64,000 nucleotides of DNA from Patescibacteria group bacterium (GCA_048499955.1 JASNYX010000004.1:3249-67248), one strand, 5' to 3'; positions 1 to 53,004 are shown, numbered from the stretch's first letter. Notes: generated from the sequence alone by a model not told the origin. Numbers and translations: made by a program.

Positions 1-551
1 CTGGAGGGCTGAATCAGGCTTGGATTGCTAACGCTTTTGATCCGGCTAGTCTGTCTCTCGATGAGATCGCTTTTATCACCCTTATATTCATGATTCTGTT
101 TGTAATCCTGGCTGTAGTGTTGCTACTTTTTTATATTACCCGCCTTATCACCATCGCTCTTGGTGCTGTGTTATCTCCGTTTATCTTTCTTCTTTGGGCA
201 TTACCAAAATTTGCGGACTTTGCTGAGATTTCCGCCAAAACCTATCTGACTACGATTTTCTCTATCTTGGTACATGTAGTGGTTATTCAGTTGGCAGCCG
301 CTTTCCTAGCATTGCCCGATCAAGTGGGCACCAATTCTTTGATCTCTATTTTGGTAGGCGTTGGACTGCTTCTGACACTACTGAAAACCCAGTCATTTAT
401 GGTTCAGCTCATGTTCTATAACTCTGGCCGGACGCTGGTCAAGAAAATGGGTGGACAAATTATGAATGTGTTCAGCAGTAAACAAAGCGAGGCTGCTCCG
501 GCTTCCAAACCCAGGACGGTTAAGATTCCCAGAAAGGTGGTGGCAGCATGA
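1..551 (+). CDS. VirB6/TrbL-like polytopic membrane protein of a type IV secretion/conjugation module (3' part; ORF runs off the window start)
   Basis: Frame 3 is open from nt 3 to the stop at 551. It encodes several hydrophobic helices (LFVILAVVLLLFYITRLITIALGAVL, IFSILVHVVVIQLAAAFLAL, ILVGVGLLLTLL). It lies immediately upstream of VirB3-like, VirB4 and hydrolase genes with 4-nt overlaps (ATGA). Confidence 0.45.
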   Translation, partial: GGLNQAWIANAFDPASLSLDEIAFITLIFMILFVILAVVLLLFYITRLITIALGAVLSPFIFLLWALPKFADFAEISAKTYLTTIFSILVHVVVIQLAAAFLALPDQVGTNSLISILVGVGLLLTLLKTQSFMVQLMFYNSGRTLVKKMGGQIMNVFSSKQSEAAPASKPRTVKIPRKVVAA

Positions 552-1030
552 GAAGTACTGTGATTCCGGCACAAGTGACAACGGTTGAGGATACTATTGC
601 TGGCAATTTGACTCTAACGCAGATAATTCTGTTGATTATGCCGGTGCTGTTATCAACCGCTGTTTATGCTGTTATGCCGGAACGACTGGTTTTATCCACC
701 TATAAAATTCCCTTGATCGTTATCTTATTTGCCGTATTTGTTGTGCTGGCCTTGCGTATAAAAGGCAGAATTGTCCTGAGCTGGCTTTCGGTTATGGCTA
801 TCTATTATTTCCGTCCACATATCTTTGTATTCAACAAAAACACCATTTACGCAAGGAATATCTTATTGCCACCAGTGAGAAAACCTACGACTGCAAAAGC
901 CAAAGTGACGATTAAGGTTCAAGATGAAGAGAGAAACGACTCATTTGATTACGAATCATTGCTTAGAAACCCCAGTATAAACATCCGCTTTACCAGAAAA
1001 GGATTACTTGTCGTCAAAAACTATGATTAA
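548..1030 (+). CDS. small two-TM membrane protein, VirB3/PrgI-like (conjugation ATPase partner)
   Basis: 160 aa with two adjacent TM helices (LIMPVLLSTAVYAV; IPLIVILFAVFVVLAL). It sits in the position of VirB3/PrgI between the VirB6-like and VirB4 genes and its start overlaps the upstream stop. Confidence 0.4.
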   Translation: MRSTVIPAQVTTVEDTIAGNLTLTQIILLIMPVLLSTAVYAVMPERLVLSTYKIPLIVILFAVFVVLALRIKGRIVLSWLSVMAIYYFRPHIFVFNKNTIYARNILLPPVRKPTTAKAKVTIKVQDEERNDSFDYESLLRNPSINIRFTRKGLLVVKNYD

Positions 1031-1628
1031 CAAAGCTTCATCCCGCCACCAGATTAATATCAAAGAAGTTAAAGATGGAGTACTCATTTTGCCGGGCAAC
1101 AAATACCGGATGATCCTGGAAACTTCCGCCGTCAACTTTGAACTAAAAAGTGAAGATGAACAGGATCAGATTATCGATACCTTCCAAAACTTCTTAAATG
1201 CACTGCCATGCTCGGTGCAGATTTTAATCAGAACCCGTGAGATTGATATCGACGGTTACTTGGCTGATTTTATGTATCACAACAATCACGAGACCAACAA
1301 AATCTATAAGGAACAGTTGAAGGAATACGGGCAGTTTATCAAAAAATTAGTCTCCGGCAACAAAATTTTGACCAGAAAGTTTTATATTGTTATTTCTGAC
1401 TCCAGTGAATCGAGCAAAGTTGATTTTTCTATCATCAAAGAGCAACTCAAGTTGAACCAAGACATTATTATCAAAGGCTTAGAGCGTCTGGGGATGAAAA
1501 CTAGAAAACTTGGCAATCTTGAGATTCTGGACTTGTTTTACAGTTTCTACAATCCATCAAAACTAAAGACTCAACCCTTAACACACAAAACTTTTGAAGC
1601 AATCAACAACCATGCAGATATTCTCTAG
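1008..1628 (+). CDS. virB4: VirB4/TrsE-family N-terminal domain (first part of a VirB4 gene split over two frames)
   Basis: The segment ...IKEVKDGVLILPGNKYRMILETSAVNFELKSEDEQDQIIDTFQNFLNALPCSVQILIRTREIDIDGYL matches the characteristic N-terminal region of Gram-positive VirB4 (TrsE/PrgJ/TcpF type). The ORF ends 35 nt inside the next ORF, which is in frame +1. The combined length of 206+604 aa equals a canonical ~800-aa VirB4. Confidence 0.55.
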   Translation: MSSKTMINKASSRHQINIKEVKDGVLILPGNKYRMILETSAVNFELKSEDEQDQIIDTFQNFLNALPCSVQILIRTREIDIDGYLADFMYHNNHETNKIYKEQLKEYGQFIKKLVSGNKILTRKFYIVISDSSESSKVDFSIIKEQLKLNQDIIIKGLERLGMKTRKLGNLEILDLFYSFYNPSKLKTQPLTHKTFEAINNHADIL

Positions 1629-3408
1629 TCCATACAAAACCATCACTAAAAAATACAAAACCTGGAACAAGAAACGCCGGGATCAAAAGAAACGGATTGA
1701 ACTGGCGTTTGGAGATCAGGATCAAGTCGATCTTATTTCTTACTCCAGCCTCCGCGAAAACTCAGGTTACATTGAGCTGGAAGAGAAGTTTATTCGTACC
1801 ATCTTTGTGTCAGGTTATCCATACATCGCTTCCACCGGCTGGCTCTCGATGCTGACTAATTTCAACCACAATGTTGATATTTCTTACCACATCGAGCAGG
1901 TTGATCCTCTGATGGCTCTGCCTAAACTAACCAGAAAAATCACAGAACTGGAATCAACCAGGCGTACGATGCAGCAGCAAGGGAGAATTATTGGCTCAGA
2001 AATTCTAGATCCGCTTGAGTCTGCCATGAACCTGAAGGACCGGATACTCCGAGGCCAGGAAAAACTATTTCAGGTATCAATTTACGTGACCTTAATTGCG
2101 GATTCATTAAATGAGTTAAATAAAATCACGACACTCCTTGATACCACTCTAGCGACCAAACTTTTCTACACCAAAGTGGCCGGTTTCCAGCAGTTGGAAG
2201 GATTGCAGTCAATTCTCCCTAGAGGTGAAAATCTCCTGGCTCAGAAAAGAAATCTTGACAGTTCTTCCGCCGCCTTAACGTTTCCCTTTACATCCTCTGA
2301 ACTGGTTCAAGAATCAGGAATCCTTTACGGGATCAATAAATCCAACAATTCTCTGGTTATTGTTGACCGATTTTCTTTACACAACGCCAACAGTATTACC
2401 TTTGCACAATCGGGCAGCGGTAAAAGCTATGCAGCCAAGGTGGAGATCTTAAGACAACTAATTCAAAAAACCAAAGTGATTGTGATCGATCCCGAACGGG
2501 AGTATCAGCAGCTTTGCAATAGTCTGGGTGGCACATATATTAAGCTCTCGGCAAGATCCCAGGAGAAAATTAACCCCTTTGACTTCTCACTTAGCAGTAG
2601 TACAGATAGCAACAGTCTGGCCGAGCATATCCAAGATTTAACTGAAGTAATTTCACTGATGGTGGAGGGACTATCTCCTCAGGAAAAAGCGGCACTAGAT
2701 AAAGCGATTATCAAAACCTACAGAGAGTTTGGCTACACTCTCCATGGCAATCACAAACGGGCAAAAGGGTCATATCCGCTTCTTAAAGACTTAAACAAAG
2801 TCCTCAAAGCCGACAAACAAAATACTTTAGCAACACGACTGGAAAAATTCGTCAAAGGATCGCTTTCCAGTGTGTTTGACTCCCAGACCAATATTGAATT
2901 GGATAACCGGCTAATAGTATTTGATATCAAAGATCTGCCGGAGTCGATCAGGCAGATCATGCTGATTATTGTGGCCAACTATGTCTATAACCAGGTCAAG
3001 AAAGAGCCACAGAAACGCCTCCTCGTAATTGATGAAGGCTGGTTGCTACTTGAACATGAAGAAAGTGCCAGGTTTGTCGCCGGGCTTACCAGAAGAGCCA
3101 GAAAATATTATTTAGGGGTCAGCATAATTTCCCAGCAAGCCAACGACTTTCTGAACAATCAGTATGGCCGGGCAATCGCCTCACAGGCTTCGCTTCGAAT
3201 CTTAATGCGGCAGGACACGACAACGATCAAGGATGTGGCTCGAGAATTCAAGCTTAGTGAATATGAGGAAAAGTTTTTGCTTACCAGTGAGCGCGGTGAG
3301 GCAATTATTATTGCCGATCAAAATCATGTGGCGATAAAGATCGTTGCTTCGGAAAAAGAACATCCTCTGATCACCACTGACCCCAAGGAACTATATCAAC
3401 CGTCATGA
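1594..3408 (+). CDS. virB4: VirB4/TraC/CagE-family conjugation ATPase (linker plus C-terminal ATPase domain)
   Basis: Walker A is FAQSGSGKSYAAKV and Walker B is RLLVIDEGWLLL. The upstream linker motif FIRTIFVSGYPYIASTGWLSMLTNFNHNVDISYHI is typical of VirB4. The stop overlaps the next start (ATGA). Confidence 0.8.
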   Translation: MKQSTTMQIFSSPYKTITKKYKTWNKKRRDQKKRIELAFGDQDQVDLISYSSLRENSGYIELEEKFIRTIFVSGYPYIASTGWLSMLTNFNHNVDISYHIEQVDPLMALPKLTRKITELESTRRTMQQQGRIIGSEILDPLESAMNLKDRILRGQEKLFQVSIYVTLIADSLNELNKITTLLDTTLATKLFYTKVAGFQQLEGLQSILPRGENLLAQKRNLDSSSAALTFPFTSSELVQESGILYGINKSNNSLVIVDRFSLHNANSITFAQSGSGKSYAAKVEILRQLIQKTKVIVIDPEREYQQLCNSLGGTYIKLSARSQEKINPFDFSLSSSTDSNSLAEHIQDLTEVISLMVEGLSPQEKAALDKAIIKTYREFGYTLHGNHKRAKGSYPLLKDLNKVLKADKQNTLATRLEKFVKGSLSSVFDSQTNIELDNRLIVFDIKDLPESIRQIMLIIVANYVYNQVKKEPQKRLLVIDEGWLLLEHEESARFVAGLTRRARKYYLGVSIISQQANDFLNNQYGRAIASQASLRILMRQDTTTIKDVAREFKLSEYEEKFLLTSERGEAIIIADQNHVAIKIVASEKEHPLITTDPKELYQPS

Positions 3409-4010
3409 ACTTATTTCTTGCCTGGAATATCTTCTCGTACCGCCGGGAGCTGGCGTATGTAGCTACCGCTTTTTTACTCGTTATTCTGCTTCCGATAATC
3501 GCAGTGAGCGTGCTGACACAGACCGGTATCAATGTTGTCTCTGACACACTGGCAGAGATTAACGAAGTTACCCAAGTAGTAGAGCTGAAAAATCCCTTGG
3601 ATGGTTCGATTTACAAGACCATAGAAGGCCCGTTTGCCTGGCCAACTACGGGAGTAATCACGCTTGAGTTCTCCAAATCAAGCCTTTACCAACTTTTCCA
3701 TACTGGACTTGATATCGCTGGCATGCGGGGTGACCCGATCACTCCTTTTATGGGCGGCAAAGTGATTTATGCAGGCGAAATATCATGGGGCTATGGCAAA
3801 CACGTCGTGATTGATCACGGAGATAACGTAACTTCCATATATGCCCACCTGGACAAAATATATGTTGCTCCGGATCAGGAAGTAGAGCCGAGAAAAGTAA
3901 TCGGGACCGAAGGCAGCACCGGCTGGGCCACCGGCCCACACCTACATTTTGAGACGAGAGTGTTTGGAATACCAGTAAACCCGAGAGTGTTTTTAGGGCA
4001 AGAATTGTGA
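3405..4010 (+). CDS. membrane-anchored M23 (LytM-type) peptidoglycan hydrolase, the cell-wall hydrolase of the T4SS module
   Basis: N-terminal TM helix. M23 motifs HTGLDIA, GKHVVIDHG and GPHLHFE are present. It is translationally coupled to VirB4. Confidence 0.8.
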   Translation: MNLFLAWNIFSYRRELAYVATAFLLVILLPIIAVSVLTQTGINVVSDTLAEINEVTQVVELKNPLDGSIYKTIEGPFAWPTTGVITLEFSKSSLYQLFHTGLDIAGMRGDPITPFMGGKVIYAGEISWGYGKHVVIDHGDNVTSIYAHLDKIYVAPDQEVEPRKVIGTEGSTGWATGPHLHFETRVFGIPVNPRVFLGQEL

Positions 4011-4040
4011 AGTTAGCAGAAGCGAGACAATTGTGTTTAT

Positions 4041-4832
4041 CTAATATTTAGAATGATTAATCAGTGCCGCATCTTTAAGGTATATTGGAGTAATCAATTT
4101 GTCTTCACTTGCTTTTAAAAGAGCAATACTGATATCTTTTGTGCCGCCCGTGTAGTCTGAAATAATTTCATAAGGTTGATAATCTGCTGCTAATTTTGCA
4201 AAAAGGCTTTCTAGTTGACTCTTAATTTCTAGTACCGATTTATCGGTGATTGTTATATTAAAGACCTCAACATGTCGGTCGCTCTTTTCTATTTCAGTCT
4301 TAAAGGTCTCAGCAATTTGCTTTACTTGTGTGGCTTCGGTAACAATTAAAACTACTTTCTCAAGAGAATTGATTGCTGAGTGTCCACCATCGTTGTAGAT
4401 TAACGATTTATAAACGTTATAAGAAGGAATATCTTTAAAATCAGACCGACTATTTGAAACAACCGTTACTAACACCTTCTTTTGATTCAATGGTGTTGGT
4501 GTAAATAAATCTTTATGGATTGATCTTATTCTTATATACACCCAAAGAGGAATACTCGTAAAAAGCAAAACCAATAGAAATAATTGTGTAGCTACTTGCA
4601 TTTCTAAAATTGCTGAAGTGACCAGATATTTAAATAGCTCAAAAAGCGCATTTGTAAGCAATCCGAACGATAAGATAAACAATAGGCTTAGCCACGGGTG
4701 ATTCGTGGAGATGCTGAGAATATTGCGGAGTAAAATACCTTTTTTGGTAAATTCCCGTTGCTGGTTTTCAATAAGATCAAAATTTTCTTTAAATTTGCTC
4801 ATAAAATGGCGTTGTTGGTGATATATCAGCAA
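4041..4832 (-). CDS. CBASS-type effector candidate: 2-TM N-terminus fused to a C-terminal CARF-like Rossmann domain (Cam1-like architecture)
   Basis: Two TM helices (WLSLLFILSFGLLTNALFELF; LFLLVLLFTSIPLWVYIRI). They are followed by an alternating beta/alpha domain: KVLVTVVSNS, VVLIVTEATQVKQIAETF, HVEVFNITI, EIISDYTGGTKD. The last segment fits the CARF signature [DN]x[ST]xxx[RK] after strand 4. This is the last gene of the CD-NTase operon. The likely start is the internal Met (MSKFKE, ~4802). Confidence 0.5.
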   Translation of the reverse strand: MLIYHQQRHFMSKFKENFDLIENQQREFTKKGILLRNILSISTNHPWLSLLFILSFGLLTNALFELFKYLVTSAILEMQVATQLFLLVLLFTSIPLWVYIRIRSIHKDLFTPTPLNQKKVLVTVVSNSRSDFKDIPSYNVYKSLIYNDGGHSAINSLEKVVLIVTEATQVKQIAETFKTEIEKSDRHVEVFNITITDKSVLEIKSQLESLFAKLAADYQPYEIISDYTGGTKDISIALLKASEDKLITPIYLKDAALINHSKY

Positions 4833-5697
4833 TTACCTTGGTTACCGATTCAAAATCTATCTTTTTATCTGGATAGCCAGTAAGAACTATCGCCGGGAAC
4901 ACTTTTTGTGTGAGATCTGAATACGTATATCCATAAGTTAAACCATCATAAGGCACACACATAGCTACTAGTTGATTTATCTGGTCTTCTGTCAACTGCA
5001 AATCATCTAAATATGTTTTAAGTAGGGTGTAACATTGATCTCGTGACGGACGATCAAATTCAAAGGTGACAGCACTTCGCCGTCGAACCGCTGGATCAAT
5101 TGCCGAATGTCTATTCGTGGACATTACGATCATTACCGGTGTTGGTAGGTCCTTCAAAGAGTCAATACCGCGAATGAGTGCATTTACGCCGGCTTTATCT
5201 TCATGGTGCATCTGTGTCACTTCTCTTGATTGTGCCAGAGCATCCGCCTCATCAATAAGTAGAATCAGTGCAGTATTAGTTTTTGCCTGAGAATGAGCCT
5301 CTTTCCGTACAAACTCAAATGAGTCGCTAATTAATTTAGTCATTTCTCCCACAATTCCAGATCCTCTTGCGTTGAGGCTTAACTTATAAAGAACTATCTT
5401 AACTTCTTCAGACCTAGCGATTTGATCTCCAAATGTTTCGGCAAGAGCCGTTTTGCCTGTTCCAACATCTCCAGAAAAAATAAATAAAGGTGGCCTATTT
5501 TTAAAAAGCTTAATAATTGGAATTTCCCTTTTGTAAAATTTTTTTGTCCACTCATCTAAGCCGGATGGGTTGAGTATGATTGATGCCTCTTTAGCTAATC
5601 TATCCTTTATATGGTCTATCCCAACAAGCGACAAATACCTCTCCTGTGCGACGGGATCAGGAAATGCAGTAATATTTTCAAAAGTCTCGCTATTCAT
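4789..5697 (-). CDS. AAA+ ATPase, TRIP13/Pch2-like (CBASS Cap6-like)
   Basis: Single AAA+ module of 302 aa with a ~75-aa N-terminal domain. Walker A is FSGDVGTGKTALAE and Walker B is LLIDEADAL. Sensor/Arg-finger region is MSTNRHSAIDPAVRRR. The size and position after the CD-NTase and a small protein match CBASS type III. Confidence 0.6.
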   Translation of the reverse strand: MNSETFENITAFPDPVAQERYLSLVGIDHIKDRLAKEASIILNPSGLDEWTKKFYKREIPIIKLFKNRPPLFIFSGDVGTGKTALAETFGDQIARSEEVKIVLYKLSLNARGSGIVGEMTKLISDSFEFVRKEAHSQAKTNTALILLIDEADALAQSREVTQMHHEDKAGVNALIRGIDSLKDLPTPVMIVMSTNRHSAIDPAVRRRSAVTFEFDRPSRDQCYTLLKTYLDDLQLTEDQINQLVAMCVPYDGLTYGYTYSDLTQKVFPAIVLTGYPDKKIDFESVTKVIADISPTTPFYEQI

Positions 5698-5698
5698 A

Positions 5699-6217
5699 TC
5701 AGTAACTCCTAAATTGTTGACGGCTCAGTCCGACTCCGTTACGAGAATAAGAATCGTCTGTTGCCCACGTCCCATTTGCCGATCCTGGTTCTGTACCGTT
5801 TGATCGCTTTATTGGTAATAGCTCTTCTACTTGACCTAAATCCTCTCCGCTTAAGCTAGGATTGTGGCGTCTTGTCAAAAAGGAATGCCAAGATGCTCCG
5901 TTAAGGTTTGTAGGAAGATCAATAATGCTAGGCTCATCGTTTGCTGATTCAACTTGCCCAAGGTTATTTACTGAATACCCGATGGCATAAATCCAGTTCC
6001 CGTTCCTCTGATAACCATACTTAACACTTTCCAGTAGACCAAACCTCAATAATATCGCTGCCTCCAGGGCTAAATCCTGAACCTTCTGTGGGGTAAGTTG
6101 GCCGCAATAAACGCGTAATAGGGTTAAGCCATGAGCAATGCGTGAGGCAAGATATTTTGCGTCAGCAATCGTAAATGTTTCCGATAAGCTTCTTGTTTGG
6201 GTATTGCTGTATGTCAT
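5699..6217 (-). CDS. small protein between CD-NTase and the AAA+ gene; HORMA (Cap7)-like by position only
   Basis: The longest ORF starts at 6289 and overlaps the CD-NTase by 68 nt. The internal Met at 6217 starts 4 nt after the CD-NTase stop and gives ~172 aa, a HORMA-like size. No diagnostic motif is recognisable by eye, so the assignment is purely contextual. The C-terminus is low-complexity (G/S/N-rich). Confidence 0.35.
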   Translation of the reverse strand: MTYSNTQTRSLSETFTIADAKYLASRIAHGLTLLRVYCGQLTPQKVQDLALEAAILLRFGLLESVKYGYQRNGNWIYAIGYSVNNLGQVESANDEPSIIDLPTNLNGASWHSFLTRRHNPSLSGEDLGQVEELLPIKRSNGTEPGSANGTWATDDSYSRNGVGLSRQQFRSY

Positions 6218-6221
6218 GCGT

Positions 6222-7235
6222 TTATCCTCTAAAAGTTGACCCCAAAACGGTCCTCCAATTTTCAACTGCTTCTTGTTTTGTTGTGGCATTCATGGCTATA
6301 GCGATCGCATTTAACGCCTTTTTAGCTTCATCAACTATTCTTTGTCGTTGATCCTCCGTATAAGTGCTTGCTATATTATTTTTGGGGTTAACCGGATCAT
6401 ATATCCGAATAATTGCGTTATCTGATTGATCAATTTTGTCTCTACTGTAGTAATCAGCAAAGAATATCGGCTCTTTGAGGCCAGTTCGTACGATATATGA
6501 AAAGAAATTACTTATCGCCTCGGTATAGTTACTAGTGTCCAGACCACTGTCAGCCAAGTGAGAACAGATAAGCTCAATCATCAGCGATTTAAACCTGAAA
6601 TGATCTCCGCGGGTTTTATATTGTTCCTTTATTAGCTTAGCCCAGTATTTTGTGAATCGAACGAATTGTATGTAATGGTCGGGCTGAGTATTTTTTCTTT
6701 TCTGGATAAACTCAAGATGCTGTGAAATACTTGTCAACACTCGCTCGCCATTGCTAGTAACTAAATAACCTTTGTTGTCTGGATCTCCTTCATAAAGGAC
6801 AGGTACAACATCTACATCCATAAGGCCGGGGGTTTTATAGTGAACAGTTACGCAATGATCGTGGGGTTCCAACTGGTTTTCATCAAAATCCGAATAAACC
6901 TCTTTAAGTCGATCTCGTAACCATGCAATAAGGCCACTGTTGTCTGAATCTGGTACAGCAGCAGCTTTAATGTAAATGGCAGTATCAAGATCGTTTAGCT
7001 GACGCAATGCTGAACCTTTTGCAAGACTCCCAGAGTGAAGCATCTTTACTAAATTGTAATCAGGGTGCTCATCAATGTATTTTTTTAACCTATCACGAAG
7101 ACTCTTGACTTGCTCACGATATTTTTTTGCAAGATCTGGGGGGAGGTTGACATGAGTTGTGGCGTAAGCCAATAGCTCTGCGTTAGTAATTGGTTGATCA
7201 ACCGTAAAATCATCAAGGCTATAATTCGTATTCAC
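6222..7235 (-). CDS. cGAS/DncV-like nucleotidyltransferase (CD-NTase, SMODS-type)
   Basis: Pol-beta NTase signature HSGSLAKGSALRQLNDLDTAIYI (GS-x9-DxD) plus a downstream acidic residue in GLMDVDVVPV. A C-terminal helical domain follows, for a total of 337 aa. It is the first gene of an operon with a TRIP13-like ATPase and a sensor-TM effector. Confidence 0.65.
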   Translation of the reverse strand: MNTNYSLDDFTVDQPITNAELLAYATTHVNLPPDLAKKYREQVKSLRDRLKKYIDEHPDYNLVKMLHSGSLAKGSALRQLNDLDTAIYIKAAAVPDSDNSGLIAWLRDRLKEVYSDFDENQLEPHDHCVTVHYKTPGLMDVDVVPVLYEGDPDNKGYLVTSNGERVLTSISQHLEFIQKRKNTQPDHYIQFVRFTKYWAKLIKEQYKTRGDHFRFKSLMIELICSHLADSGLDTSNYTEAISNFFSYIVRTGLKEPIFFADYYSRDKIDQSDNAIIRIYDPVNPKNNIASTYTEDQRQRIVDEAKKALNAIAIAMNATTKQEAVENWRTVLGSTFRG

Positions 7236-7292
7236 ATCATTTAGTGTCTTCTATCTTTGGGAGGGTTAGGGTCATTTGCCGGGGGCACAGTA

Positions 7293-7475
7293 TCACTGTC
7301 TCGAATAGGACCGTTGATGCTGTGGACTCTCCTTCACCACCTGAATTAGATGAAAGTCTTTTGCCTTGGATTCTGCTGCACTTTGAGTAGGAAAATAGCC
7401 AGAGGCACGAGATGCGCCTTCTCGTTTTATCCGGTATCCTTCCTTCCTATTTCCTGAAACATGGTAGTTTGCCAT
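7293..7475 (-). CDS. DUF2188-family small protein
   Basis: MANYHVSGNRKEGYRIKREGASRASGYFPTQSAAESKAKDF resembles the DUF2188 consensus (HV.p...gW.vk.eG..ra...f.tq.eA...A). It lies directly upstream of the CD-NTase on the same strand. Confidence 0.4.
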   Translation of the reverse strand: MANYHVSGNRKEGYRIKREGASRASGYFPTQSAAESKAKDFHLIQVVKESPQHQRSYSRQ

Positions 7476-7503
7476 AATATATTTCCAAGTAATAAACTGT
7501 CAT

Positions 7504-7540
7504 TTGACATTATGGTAACATTACCATAAAATTTATGGTA
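7504..7540 (+). promoter_or_regulatory. sigma70-like promoter of lexA (TTGACA 7504-7509, 17-nt spacer, TAAAAT 7527-7532) overlapped by nested palindromes
   Basis: Read directly from sequence. The -35 and -10 hexamers have an exact 17-nt spacer and lie ~19 nt upstream of the lexA ATG. The spacer contains the inverted repeat TGGTAAcaTTACCA (7513-7526). The -10 is embedded in the 9-1-9 perfect palindrome TACCATAAAaTTTATGGTA (7522-7540). TGTCAtttGACA lies at 7498-7509. Confidence 0.55.
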
Positions 7541-7550
7541 TAGCAATACT

Positions 7551-8153
7551 ATGCTTCCCCAAAAACAAAAAGAAATTCTAGACTTCATCTTAAACTATCA
7601 ACGCACTCACGGACATGGCCCTACGCTCGATGAGATCGCCTCAGGTTTTGGAAGGTCAATCGCCACCATACACCAACATGTTCGCGCATTGAGAGCAAAG
7701 GGCTTTCTTAAGGCCGCTGGTTCCTCAGCCCGCAGTATAGGTGTTTTTGACGCCAGTGAAGAAGTTGAAGAAATCCCATTAATGGGCTACGTATCTGCGG
7801 GAGGTGGACTGGAGAACATAGAAAATCCAGAGCCAATTAAGGTACAAAAAAGTCTTTTATCGCATTCCGGCAATCATTTTGCCTTAGTGGTAAAGGGTAC
7901 ATCCATGATTGATGATGGAATCCTGCCAGACGATATTATTATTGTGAGACACCAGAATCATGCAGACAATGGTGATGTAGTTGTAGCCTTGATAGGTTCG
8001 GAAGAAAATTCTCTAGCAACGGTAAAAAGGTTTTATAATTTAGGCAAAAAAATAGAATTGAGACCCAAAAATCCGACACTACCATCACGGGTCTACGATC
8101 AGGGTGCAGTAGAGATTCGTGGGAAGTTTGTGGGTCTACTGCGACACGGATGA
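7551..8153 (+). CDS. lexA: LexA repressor (wHTH plus S24 peptidase)
   Basis: N-terminal wHTH. S24 catalytic motifs are GTSMIDDGILPDDIIIV (Ser nucleophile) and TVKRF (Lys). It is transcribed divergently from the CD-NTase operon. Confidence 0.8.
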   Translation: MLPQKQKEILDFILNYQRTHGHGPTLDEIASGFGRSIATIHQHVRALRAKGFLKAAGSSARSIGVFDASEEVEEIPLMGYVSAGGGLENIENPEPIKVQKSLLSHSGNHFALVVKGTSMIDDGILPDDIIIVRHQNHADNGDVVVALIGSEENSLATVKRFYNLGKKIELRPKNPTLPSRVYDQGAVEIRGKFVGLLRHG

Positions 8154-8198: not shown

Positions 8199-8408
8199 AT
8201 GAGTCCGAAAAGTAATAACCCCAAGAATAAACTAAGAGTAAATCGTCTCAAAGCCAAACTCACACAAAAAGAGCTGGCTGAAAAGCTTGGTGTACACGTA
8301 AATTATTATGCTCGGATTGAGCGTGGAGAAGAAAATCCTTCTTTGGAGACGTTGAAAAAACTAACCAAGATACTCAAGATCAAATCTTCGGATATCCTAT
8401 CCTTCTGA
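8199..8408 (+). CDS. XRE-family helix-turn-helix transcriptional regulator
   Basis: LTQKELAEKLGVHVNYYARIERGEENPSLETLKKLTKIL is a typical Cro/C1-type HTH. It is 69 aa long. Confidence 0.7.
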   Translation: MSPKSNNPKNKLRVNRLKAKLTQKELAEKLGVHVNYYARIERGEENPSLETLKKLTKILKIKSSDILSF

Positions 8409-8651
8409 TTGATTCTCTTTTTCTTTCTGCTTCTTTAAATCTTCGAAAATCTCCAACAGTAGATCGGGGTTGGTATGACCGAGTTCGTGAACTGTGGCTT
8501 GTAAATGCTCCAAGATGGCAATGGCCATCTCTGGGGTGGCATTGTCCGGATCAGTTTTTTTGAGAATATTGAGGACAGTATCAATGTCTTTCTCGTTGAT
8601 TTCGTAGTCTTGAGAACTCTTGTTCATACCAGGCAAGTATATCACGCTCAT
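8397..8651 (-). CDS. hypothetical acidic protein, co-oriented and overlapping with the PLD nuclease gene
   Basis: 84-aa ORF with a 4-nt overlap with the upstream gene. No recognisable motif. Confidence 0.3.
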   Translation of the reverse strand: MSVIYLPGMNKSSQDYEINEKDIDTVLNILKKTDPDNATPEMAIAILEHLQATVHELGHTNPDLLLEIFEDLKKQKEKENQSEG

Positions 8652-52930: not shown

Positions 52931-53004
52931 TGGCTGCCCAGCCTGGATTTGAACCAGGATTCTACGCTCCAGAGGCGCATGTCCTACCGTTAGACGACCG
53001 GGCA
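52931..53004 (-). tRNA. tRNA-Gln (anticodon CTG), CCA encoded
   Basis: The reverse complement folds as a cloverleaf. The acceptor pairs TGCCCGG with CTGGGCA. The D-arm is GTCGTCTAACGGTAGGACA. The anticodon stem is TGCGC/GCGTA with loop CTCTGGA. The T-arm is CCTGG-TTCAAAT-CCAGG. It has a discriminator G plus CCA. Confidence 0.8.

Follow-up and report, generated by a model that had tools for sequence, protein, structure and literature searches.

The closest described relative of the locus reported here is the type III CBASS (an antiphage signalling system based on cyclic oligonucleotides) of Escherichia coli MS115-1, which is encoded by a CdnC-HORMA-Trip13-NucC operon (PDB 6p80, 6p8v and 6p7o) and for which the control logic connecting HORMA, Trip13 and CdnC has been established. 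Characterized CdnC operons signal with cyclic triadenylate (cA3), by which the nuclease NucC is activated. CBASS and type III CRISPR systems share effectors, such as NucC and TIR-SAVED, and canonical CARF effectors have so far been treated as specific to CRISPR and responsive to cyclic tetra- or hexaadenylate (cA4 or cA6). Within a 64,000-nucleotide stretch of DNA from a Patescibacteria group bacterium, hereafter the window, we describe an operon that contains the same three upstream components as MS115-1 in the same order, with a HORMA protein of the same single-HORMA, bacHORMA_1 type, and whose fourth gene encodes a protein combining two transmembrane (TM) helices with a CARF domain (2TM-CARF) instead of NucC. 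This locus is probably a functional type III CBASS antiphage operon of the MS115-1 kind (CdnC, single-HORMA) in which the soluble nuclease has been swapped for a membrane effector of CRISPR origin. MS115-1 likewise carries a divergent, DNA-damage-responsive repressor upstream, but the regulator next to the operon in the window is a LexA with a self-cleaving S24 domain rather than CapH/CapP, the operon is headed by a DUF2188 leader gene, and the host belongs to the candidate phyla radiation (CPR).

Five successive minus-strand open reading frames (ORFs) extend across 7475..4041, namely the DUF2188 gene followed by the four CBASS genes, which are co-oriented and tightly coupled as an initial annotation made from the sequence had placed them (Table 1). 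Profile hidden Markov model (HMM) and PDB matches to the MS115-1 CdnC:HORMA:Trip13 proteins bear out its proposal that the gene order is that of a type III CBASS, and the operon combines a cyclase with an intact active site, a neighbouring HORMA protein, a Trip13/Pch2 AAA+ ATPase and an effector carrying a cyclic-oligonucleotide sensor. The 337-residue product of the first gene is a CD-NTase (a nucleotidyltransferase of the cGAS/DncV-like type) that matches PADLOC Cyclase PDLC00808 at 5e-114 as well as NCBIfam CBASS_cyclase_a (6e-110, with 367 bits where the cutoff is 200), exceeds the cutoff of Pfam SMODS, and returns EcCdnC of E. coli MS115-1 (PDB 6p80) over residues 20–337 at 6e-85, the sole PDB match at E<=0.01. 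It thus groups with a signalling enzyme and not with antibiotic nucleotidyltransferases or MNT toxins, the outcome named in advance as arguing against such a role. The length and the GS...DxD active site were correctly read at the outset, but the motif spacing is x11 and not x9: the site consists of G69-S70-x11-D82-L-D84 with a third aspartate at D142, and all these residues are invariant in 29 homologues. CdnC proteins at least 60% identical to that of the window form a separate cluster (about 30 clusters of sequences, <=59% identical to others).

The second protein had been called HORMA from its size and position; it now proves homologous to the MS115-1 HORMA, with matches to Pfam bacHORMA_1 (PF18138, 1.6e-29), PADLOC HORMA (2e-36) and PDB 6p8v_H (1.7e-16). 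Although its ORF spans 6289..5699, HMM matches begin only at ORF residues 28–30, and the true start is therefore assigned to the ATG at 6217, 4 nt past the CdnC stop. The third gene encodes a 302-residue AAA+ protein, as first proposed, and its clade is that of bacterial Trip13/Pch2 (PADLOC TRIP13 4e-116; PDB 6pb3 2e-83; PDB 6p8v_A 1e-80), the next AAA+ proteins following at 1e-17, so that Cdc48/Rix7-type matches are poorer by about 65 orders of magnitude. Read from the sequence, its motifs are intact and comprise a Walker A GDVGTGKT (G76-T83, with K82), a Walker B D149-E150 and the arginines R205-R207. All four CBASS genes are under purifying selection, with ratios of nonsynonymous to synonymous substitution rates of 0.04–0.16 in comparisons with the orthologous loci L006 and L007 (CdnC 0.075–0.086, HORMA 0.11–0.16, Trip13 0.04–0.08 and effector 0.13–0.14).

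The effector probably starts at the ATG at 4802, which overlaps the Trip13 stop and gives a protein of 253 residues in agreement with its homologues; the TTG at 4832 considered earlier was replaced by this codon. Hydropathy and an AlphaFold2 monomer model computed from a 26-sequence alignment outline N-terminal cytosolic helices (residues 2–34), TM1 (about 36–60), a short outside loop, TM2 (about 68–94) and a Rossmann-type CARF domain (about 108–240) whose β-α-β core lies at 110–240 in the model; hydropathy taken by itself puts the two hydrophobic helices at about 36–58 and 70–93. Both elements of the initial description of the fourth protein, two TM helices and a C-terminal Rossmann-like sensor, are therefore present, and the sensor can be refined to a canonical CARF domain; the SAVED alternative falls away, as the protein shows no match to the SAVED domain (Pfam PF18145) at E<=0.1 and its sensor has the length of a single CARF domain. 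The protein matches Pfam CARF_Card1 (29.2 bits against a cutoff of 24.6, 1e-6) and two PADLOC profiles, 'CARF, 2 TMs' (CARF_2M, PDLC01168; 9.5e-18 over residues 49–243) and 'TM+CARF' (PDLC01053, 7e-12), and none of the CBASS-effector models of PADLOC (v2.0). CARF proteins make up the top 49 among the 50 Foldseek matches listed. The best match in the PDB is the CARF domain of Cam1 (E 1e-5, probability 1.00, 18% identity, TM-score about 0.55–0.65 on the target); the ring nucleases Sso2081 and Sis0455 come next, ahead of Cdn1, Cad1, Csa3, Can2 and Card1. Cam1 was not returned by a phmmer search of the effector against the PDB at E<=1, so that the likeness is one of fold only. The effector is thus a member of the CARF superfamily that resembles Cam1 in architecture and fold; it is neither a sequence-level member of the Cam1 family nor linked to CRISPR. 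In the alignment, the CARF loop motif DYTGG(T)K at 216–222 is invariant and TM1 is strongly conserved (H35, P36, S39, F42, G47 and N51), whereas TM2 is variable. The family is tiny: in 5.8 billion proteins it accounts for 25 clusters, and when 1.84 billion representatives were searched with a profile, 16 clusters passed E<=1e-30 and the following match stood at 1e-7. A scan of viral contigs returned no relatives.

Cam1, the CRISPR-associated pore Cap1, Chp1 and Csx23 share with it an architecture in which a cytosolic CARF domain comes after TM helices at the N terminus, and Cap1 likewise runs from a cytosolic N terminus through TM1 and TM2 to the sensor. Signal-gated membrane depolarization would be the expected common output. 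Cam1, Cap1 and Chp1 have been shown experimentally to be cA4-gated, depolarizing membrane effectors (PMC10808066; 10.1101/2025.11.13.688252; 10.64898/2026.08.05.743128). Unlike in these systems, the signal in the window would be generated by a CD-NTase with HORMA and Trip13 rather than by Cas10, and the ligand may be cA3 rather than cA4. The 'CARF, 2 TMs' class of PADLOC and Makarova (PDLC01168; CARF8--CARF_TM) has the same layout, and the profile-level match spans both the TM and the CARF regions; its members L014 and L017 are, however, located in CRISPR loci, and the CBASS-linked group forms a sharply separate cluster. Among CBASS effectors, Cap14 (2TM-SAVED), Cap15 and Cap16 act on the membrane after nucleotide binding, as proposed here, but sense through a SAVED, β-barrel or NUDIX domain where the window protein has a single canonical CARF. 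Finally, the CARF domain finds its best PDB sequence match, as well as a fold match, in Cdn1 (PDB 8z4i), whose CARF binds cA3 at about 23 nM (PMC12825302). By the example of Cdn1, a canonical CARF dimer is capable of binding cA3, although this soluble RNase, encoded at a type III-B CRISPR locus, is not activated by the ligand (PMC12825302).

About 15 independent contigs of Patescibacteria repeat the order CdnC-HORMA1-TRIP13-2TM-CARF, each stop overlapping or abutting the next start (L001–L004, L006, L007, L010, L011, L020, L024, L025 and L047 among them), several of them named Ca. Saccharimonadales or Saccharibacteria, and the arrangement is consequently not due to chance. In all these loci the effector gene is the fourth gene of the CBASS operon. 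Among the CdnC loci compared, 2TM-CARF is confined to the subgroup at 64% identity or more. The next CdnC relative beyond this subgroup (P0057, 59% identity), on a 1.17-Mb Patescibacteria contig, belongs to an operon that ends in a true NucC (match to PDB 6p7o at 5e-47), in line with the early suggestion that a membrane effector stands in for NucC in the window. In 80 further metagenome CdnC loci the fourth gene encodes NucC (22 loci), Cap4-nuclease-SAVED or TIR-SAVED proteins, once a small TM protein and once a Cas10 directly after TRIP13; operons of the SAVED type match SAVED at 1e-16 to 1e-24. The nearest 2TM-CARF proteins outside the group, L014 (Chloroflexia) and L017, are 22–25% identical to the window protein and lie within type III-D and III-B CRISPR loci, beside Cas5/Cas7/Cas6 or Cas10/Cmr3/Cmr6/RT-Cas1 (RT, reverse transcriptase), while the 64-kb window contains no match to Cas10, Cmr3 or Cas7. 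Because the nearest relatives of the effector are located in CRISPR loci, its best fold match is Cam1 and CdnC operons outside the subgroup carry NucC, Cap4-SAVED or TIR-SAVED, the most economical account is that, within Patescibacteria, a 2TM-CARF effector ancillary to CRISPR took the place of NucC in a CBASS of the CdnC type. The locus with Cas10, L035 (6001–10345), places a Cas10/Cmr2 gene (Pfam Cas10-Cmr2_palm2 1e-32; Cmr2_N 4e-19) directly after CdnC-HORMA-TRIP13, in the position of the effector, and may represent a CBASS/type III CRISPR hybrid island.

Divergent from the operon lies a lexA gene that the initial annotation had passed over, separated from the DUF2188 gene by 75 bp. Its product matches TIGR00498 (5.5e-46, 156.7 bits against a cutoff of 111) as well as Pfam LexA_DNA_bind and Peptidase_S24, and retains, as read from the sequence, the Ala-Gly cleavage site and the Ser/Lys dyad (VSAGGG, GTSM and ATVKRF). 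The family comprises 513 clusters at E<=1e-10, the best 120 of which are 63–74% identical to the window protein, and its named relatives belong to the Microgenomates group and Ca. Gottesmanbacteria. These relatives point to the Microgenomates group or Gottesmanbacteria as the origin of the window and away from Saccharibacteria, which had been assumed at first. With more than 500 clusters, the family is that of a conserved CPR LexA, and a role of the window protein as a regulator dedicated to CBASS was therefore dropped; such a role stands only for unrelated LexA-like genes found at L003, L004, L019 and L021. The lexA promoter agrees with the consensus at 11 of 12 positions, with a -35 element TTGACA (7504–7509), a 17-nt spacer and a -10 element TAAAAT (7527–7532). 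A palindrome, TTATGGTAACATTACCATAA, at 7510–7529 fills the spacer (spacer palindrome ATGGTAACATTACCAT) and is overlapped by a second, TACCATAAAATTTATGGTA, at 7522–7540, both within the 75-bp divergent region; they emerged from a custom palindrome scan, a general inverted-repeat search of 7200–7620 having returned nothing. The pattern GGTA-N4-TACC recurs between TTGACA and TAAAnT in eight of nine orthologous lexA loci and is a putative LexA operator in the promoter of lexA itself.

Orthologous lexA loci indicate that the position opposite this gene is not reserved for type III CBASS. Six of them were sampled solely for their long contigs (L102–L107), and every one of the six holds a different abortive-infection system in the slot divergent from lexA (Table 1). 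With the window included, the cargo is divergent and starts about 25–110 bp from the lexA ATG in all seven loci, and the conserved CPR lexA neighbourhood thus looks like an SOS-linked defence hotspot. Divergent repressor genes upstream of a CBASS core, sharing its promoter region, are known from CapW and CapH/CapP, which are derepressed by DNA damage or single-stranded DNA (PMC9122588; 10.1101/2022.04.27.489752), and CapH/CapP also precede operons led by DUF2188 (10.1101/2022.04.27.489752). Unlike these repressors, the window LexA, with its winged-helix domain and S24 autoprotease, is apparently a conserved host LexA and not specific to the system. The literature searched yielded no report of LexA-family regulators of CBASS.

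Outside the orthologous set, LexA-like genes lie directly upstream of CdnC and co-directional with it in seven 2TM-CARF loci of the Saccharimonadia type (L003, L004, L010, L011, L020, L024 and L025), and in the same arrangement in L019, L021 (Pirellulaceae), L049 and L061. These genes are unrelated to the window LexA set (about 33% identical). At L019 the lexA-like stop and the CdnC start share 4 nt, and a TACGC-N5-GCGTA palindrome lies ahead of both genes. Overall, a LexA-family neighbour accompanies 11 of the 12 distinct 2TM-CARF-type loci with available upstream sequence, as against 4 of about 53 other CdnC loci. The Saccharimonadia-type loci share a conserved leader between the LexA-like gene and CdnC (L004 5425–5560, and the same region in L010, L011, L020, L024, L025 and L001), which includes a terminator-like hairpin, CAGTCGCGCTAACGACTG, with a T run behind it, a palindrome, AAATAGAC(C)GTCTATTT, beside a -10-like TATTATAC, and the conserved sequence ACAGTCATGyGTGACGGCGC...GGAGGG. 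L001, the sole locus without a LexA-like gene, has only a degenerate form of this palindrome. A common lexA/CdnC operator in L004, L010, L011, L020, L024 and L025 was considered and rejected, as the two conserved palindromes differ, and control of CBASS by LexA thus finds no support in these loci. Large serine recombinases (Resolvase/Recombinase) flank loci of this co-directional type (L001 1251–10596; L021 3942–11951; L004 1986–3587; L020 3172–4737), and may mark a mobile island of another kind than the lexA slot in which the window operon lies.

Comparison of the window with L007 (6400–9740) reveals 86–95% nucleotide identity across about 4000–7300 and only 57–82% in both flanks, the right-hand identity junction falling inside the 3′ part of DUF2188. 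Because of this difference between block and flanks, the cassette must have moved between lineages into the same slot. A DUF2188 gene directly upstream on the same strand had been noted at the outset; the gene is indeed there, but its reading frame is disrupted by two indels (-1 and -4 nt, near 7330–7365) relative to L006 and L007. In the latter loci the intact product has 79 residues and its ORF ends 5 nt before the CdnC start, which in the window would correspond to a TAA at 7243..7241. DUF2188 leaders also precede other defence cargo in L102, L104 and L106. Near-identical cassettes (92–96% protein identity; L006, L007, L008 and P0155) are found on short contigs of metagenome-assembled genomes labelled Gammaproteobacteria, Pseudomonadales, Brocadiaceae and Flavobacteriales; these inconsistent labels are likely to reflect mis-binned CPR contigs, the alternative being genuine transfer between phyla.

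From the known behaviour of its relatives, a working scheme for the system can be drawn. In the resting state a Trip13 hexamer would hold HORMA in an open, inactive form and thereby keep CdnC off. Upon infection, HORMA would close around a phage- or infection-derived peptide and bind CdnC, which would then produce a cyclic oligoadenylate from ATP; by analogy, this upstream half is expected to operate as in MS115-1. The signal would bind the cytosolic CARF domains, presumably at a dimer or oligomer interface as predicted from CARF membership, and would open or reorganize an oligomeric pore as in Cam1 and Cap1, with depolarization leading to arrest or death before phage release; such a membrane-disrupting output follows from the analogy with these two proteins. 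On balance, cA3 is favoured as the CdnC product, and cA4 or another species comes close to being an equal prospect. Only seven positions, all conservative, distinguish the CdnC proteins of the 2TM-CARF group from those linked to NucC or SAVED in a specificity-position scan, which mildly favours an unchanged cA3 product and is not decisive. Transcription of the operon is probably SOS-gated, as the DUF2188-led genes share with host lexA a 75-bp region largely covered by the two LexA-box palindromes: RecA-stimulated cleavage of LexA, upon phage replication or DNA damage, would raise expression, in parallel with CapW and CapH/CapP in E. coli type III CBASS. Repression of the adjacent CBASS operon by LexA is suggested by position. 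As a joint and still tentative proposal, 2TM-CARF would be the first case of a canonical CARF effector coupled in nature to a CD-NTase, with cA3 as its activator, and the promoter region of host lexA would serve, in a large CPR clade, as a dedicated SOS-gated expression site into which one abortive-infection cassette can be exchanged for another, with DUF2188 as a frequent leader and as a homology anchor for exchange. The cassettes observed to date are type III CBASS, Cap15-bearing type I CBASS, patatin CBASS, TIR-caspase of Thoeris IV-like type and Bil.

Several observations weigh against the working scheme or parts of it. All TM-CARF effectors characterized to date are cA4-responsive, and activation by cA3 is not known for any CARF, so that a cA3-CARF pairing would be unprecedented; cA3-bound Cdn1 stays inactive, and Cap1 does not bind cA3 (PMC12825302; 10.1101/2025.11.13.688252). 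The functions of all four CBASS proteins are those predicted from their homologues, and the AlphaFold2 model of the effector, a monomer, is of moderate quality (predicted local distance difference test 76, predicted TM-score 0.53). The frameshifts in DUF2188 may denote decay to a pseudogene or an assembly error. As regards regulation, the LexA box occurs once in the 64-kb window, in the lexA promoter, which is no more than expected by chance for the bare pattern, and no further boxes that could define a regulon are present in the window. The best minus-strand promoter, ATGACA-16/18-TATATT, has a -10 element abutting the DUF2188 ATG and is not trusted as the promoter of the operon. In the Saccharimonadia-type loci, the palindrome preceding lexA, TACGCTAnnTAGCGTA, is unlike that preceding CdnC, AAATAGACCGTCTATTT, and a terminator-like hairpin lies between the two genes.

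One competing explanation concerns the ligand. The same architecture might run on cA4 or another non-cA3 signal if the CdnC of this subgroup has changed its product to suit a CRISPR-type cA4 CARF pore, in which case the effector would be exactly Cam1- or Cap1-like. This would accord with the activation of all characterized TM-CARF effectors by cA4 (PMC10808066; 10.1101/2025.11.13.688252; 10.64898/2026.08.05.743128), with the two-fold pockets of CARF dimers, which suit cA4 or cA6, with the listing of cA4 among reported CBASS signals in a review (PMC8284326) and with the separate clustering of the subgroup CdnC (at least 60% identity within, <=59% to others). We nevertheless regard it as unlikely, though worth serious consideration: only seven conservative group-specific substitutions set these enzymes apart from the NucC- and SAVED-linked ones, the nearest Patescibacteria outgroup operon uses the cA3-specific effector NucC, and Cdn1, which the CARF domain matches best by sequence in the PDB, binds cA3 tightly (PMC12825302).

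An equally doubtful alternative concerns the regulatory part of the scheme: the adjacency to lexA might be positional only, the lexA-T4SS region (T4SS, type IV secretion system) being a recombination hotspot for cassettes that LexA does not control. The evident exchange of cassettes between diverged flanks would fit such a hotspot, as would the lack of DUF2188 in the cargo of L103, L105 and L107, the minus-strand promoter, which is not convincingly placed, and the restriction-modification and other defence genes on the opposite side of lexA in L103 and L105, typical of a defence island. SOS gating is preferred on three counts. The cargo is divergent from lexA at about 25–110 bp from its ATG, sharing the operator-bearing region, in seven of seven orthologous loci; in other phyla, CdnC operons have unrelated LexA-like genes (about 33% identical) immediately upstream, in one case with a stop that overlaps the CdnC start; and DNA-damage-responsive repressors occupy the same divergent layout in E. 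coli type III CBASS (PMC9122588; 10.1101/2022.04.27.489752).

That the 2TM-CARF protein is not a killer but regulates from the membrane, for instance by degrading or soaking up the signal as a ring nuclease or sink would, with the real output elsewhere or missing from the system, appears highly improbable. The presence of the stand-alone CARF ring nucleases Sso2081 and Sis0455 among its top fold matches and the variability of TM2 would be compatible with a non-effector role, but none of the about 15 loci carries another effector candidate alongside the operon, the gene takes the position held by NucC or SAVED effectors in sister operons, TM1 is conserved (H35, P36, S39, G47 and N51) as expected of a working membrane element, and the CRISPR relatives of the same architecture are effectors. 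Least probable of all is that the operon is a maintenance or exclusion module of the adjacent conjugative T4SS rather than an antiphage system, for although it lies 30 nt from the last gene of the T4SS module and T4SS genes flank L003, L006, L007 and L107, L001, L004 and L020 carry this operon with no T4SS nearby, beside serine recombinases or housekeeping genes, the slot holds other recognized phage-defence systems, and all the components belong to bona fide CBASS families.

A conserved and selected CdnC-HORMA-Trip13 operon with 2TM-CARF as its sole output offers a natural test of whether a CARF domain reads a CD-NTase signal, possibly cA3, and the effector, with only 253 residues, is a suitably small subject for structural studies of membrane effectors gated by a ligand. 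Annotation tools built on the PADLOC (v2.0) CBASS effector models would probably score the system as lacking an effector. The slot next to lexA suggests how genome-reduced CPR bacteria, poorly studied for defence, silence and exchange toxic abortive-infection systems, and a tie to the SOS repressor would extend the theme of CapW and CapH/CapP to the LexA family.

Table 1. Features of the window around the CBASS operon, and cargo of the corresponding slot at six orthologous lexA loci.
Feature	Position	Strand	Basis or content
CBASS operon, four tightly packed genes	7235..4041	-	ORF coordinates confirmed as first noted, with 5 corrections
CdnC-type CD-NTase, 337 aa, signal synthase	6222..7235	-	PADLOC, NCBIfam, Pfam SMODS, PDB
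HORMA protein, bacHORMA_1/Cap7 type, 172 aa from ATG 6217; presumed infection sensor and CdnC activator	5699..6217	-	Pfam, PADLOC, PDB
Trip13/Pch2-like AAA+ ATPase, Cap6 type, 302 aa; presumed negative regulator resetting HORMA	4789..5697	-	PADLOC, PDB
2TM-CARF effector, 253 aa	4041..4802	-	Pfam, PADLOC, AlphaFold2, Foldseek, hydropathy
DUF2188 leader gene, disrupted	7293..7475	-	Pfam DUF2188 1.7e-8; PADLOC PDC-S16 8e-8
Horizontally exchanged block: DUF2188 3′ end and four CBASS genes	4000..7300		Nucleotide identity to L007
lexA promoter with candidate LexA operators	7504..7540		Promoter scan, palindrome scan
LexA, 200 aa, winged-helix DNA-binding and S24 self-cleaving domains, divergent from operon	7551..8153	+	TIGR00498, Pfam
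VirB4-like ATPase, CD1110 family	1594-3408	+	NCBIfam conju_CD1110 1e-108
M23 peptidase	3405-4010	+	Pfam Peptidase_M23 8e-29
HTH_3 gene	8199-8408	+	Pfam HTH_3 3e-17
84-aa ORF	8397-8651	-	
Small PLD-family protein, 154 aa	8648-9112	-	Pfam PLDc_2 2e-12; PADLOC MkoC/DrmC-like 2.6e-12
L102 slot cargo	lexA-divergent		DUF2188 + CD-NTase + Cap15 (type I CBASS)
L103 slot cargo	lexA-divergent		Bil system, BilA-D
L104 slot cargo	lexA-divergent		DUF2188 + TIR + caspase-like C14 + DUF2321
L105 slot cargo	lexA-divergent		Patatin + SMODS/AGS-C cyclase
L106 slot cargo	lexA-divergent		DUF2188 + 178-aa protein + SMODS/AGS-C
L107 slot cargo	lexA-divergent		TIR + C14; M23/T4SS and HTH_3/PLD flanks as in window

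The left flank of the operon is formed by the T4SS module that the initial annotation had placed there, in which the CD1110-family VirB4 and the M23 peptidase are confirmed. The module extends over 90–4010, with genes for a TrbL-like membrane protein and PrgI-like and TraC-like proteins in addition to these two, and is convergent with the effector gene across a 30-nt gap. A T4SS/M23 left flank is also present in L006, L007 and L107. On the other side, the HTH_3 gene, the 84-aa ORF and the gene of the PLD-family protein may constitute another small defence or toxin module, and this right flank travels with the lexA slot in L003, L006, L007, L104 and L107. Elsewhere, the 64-kb window gives one match to Rfam, a tRNA gene at 52934–53004 on the minus strand.

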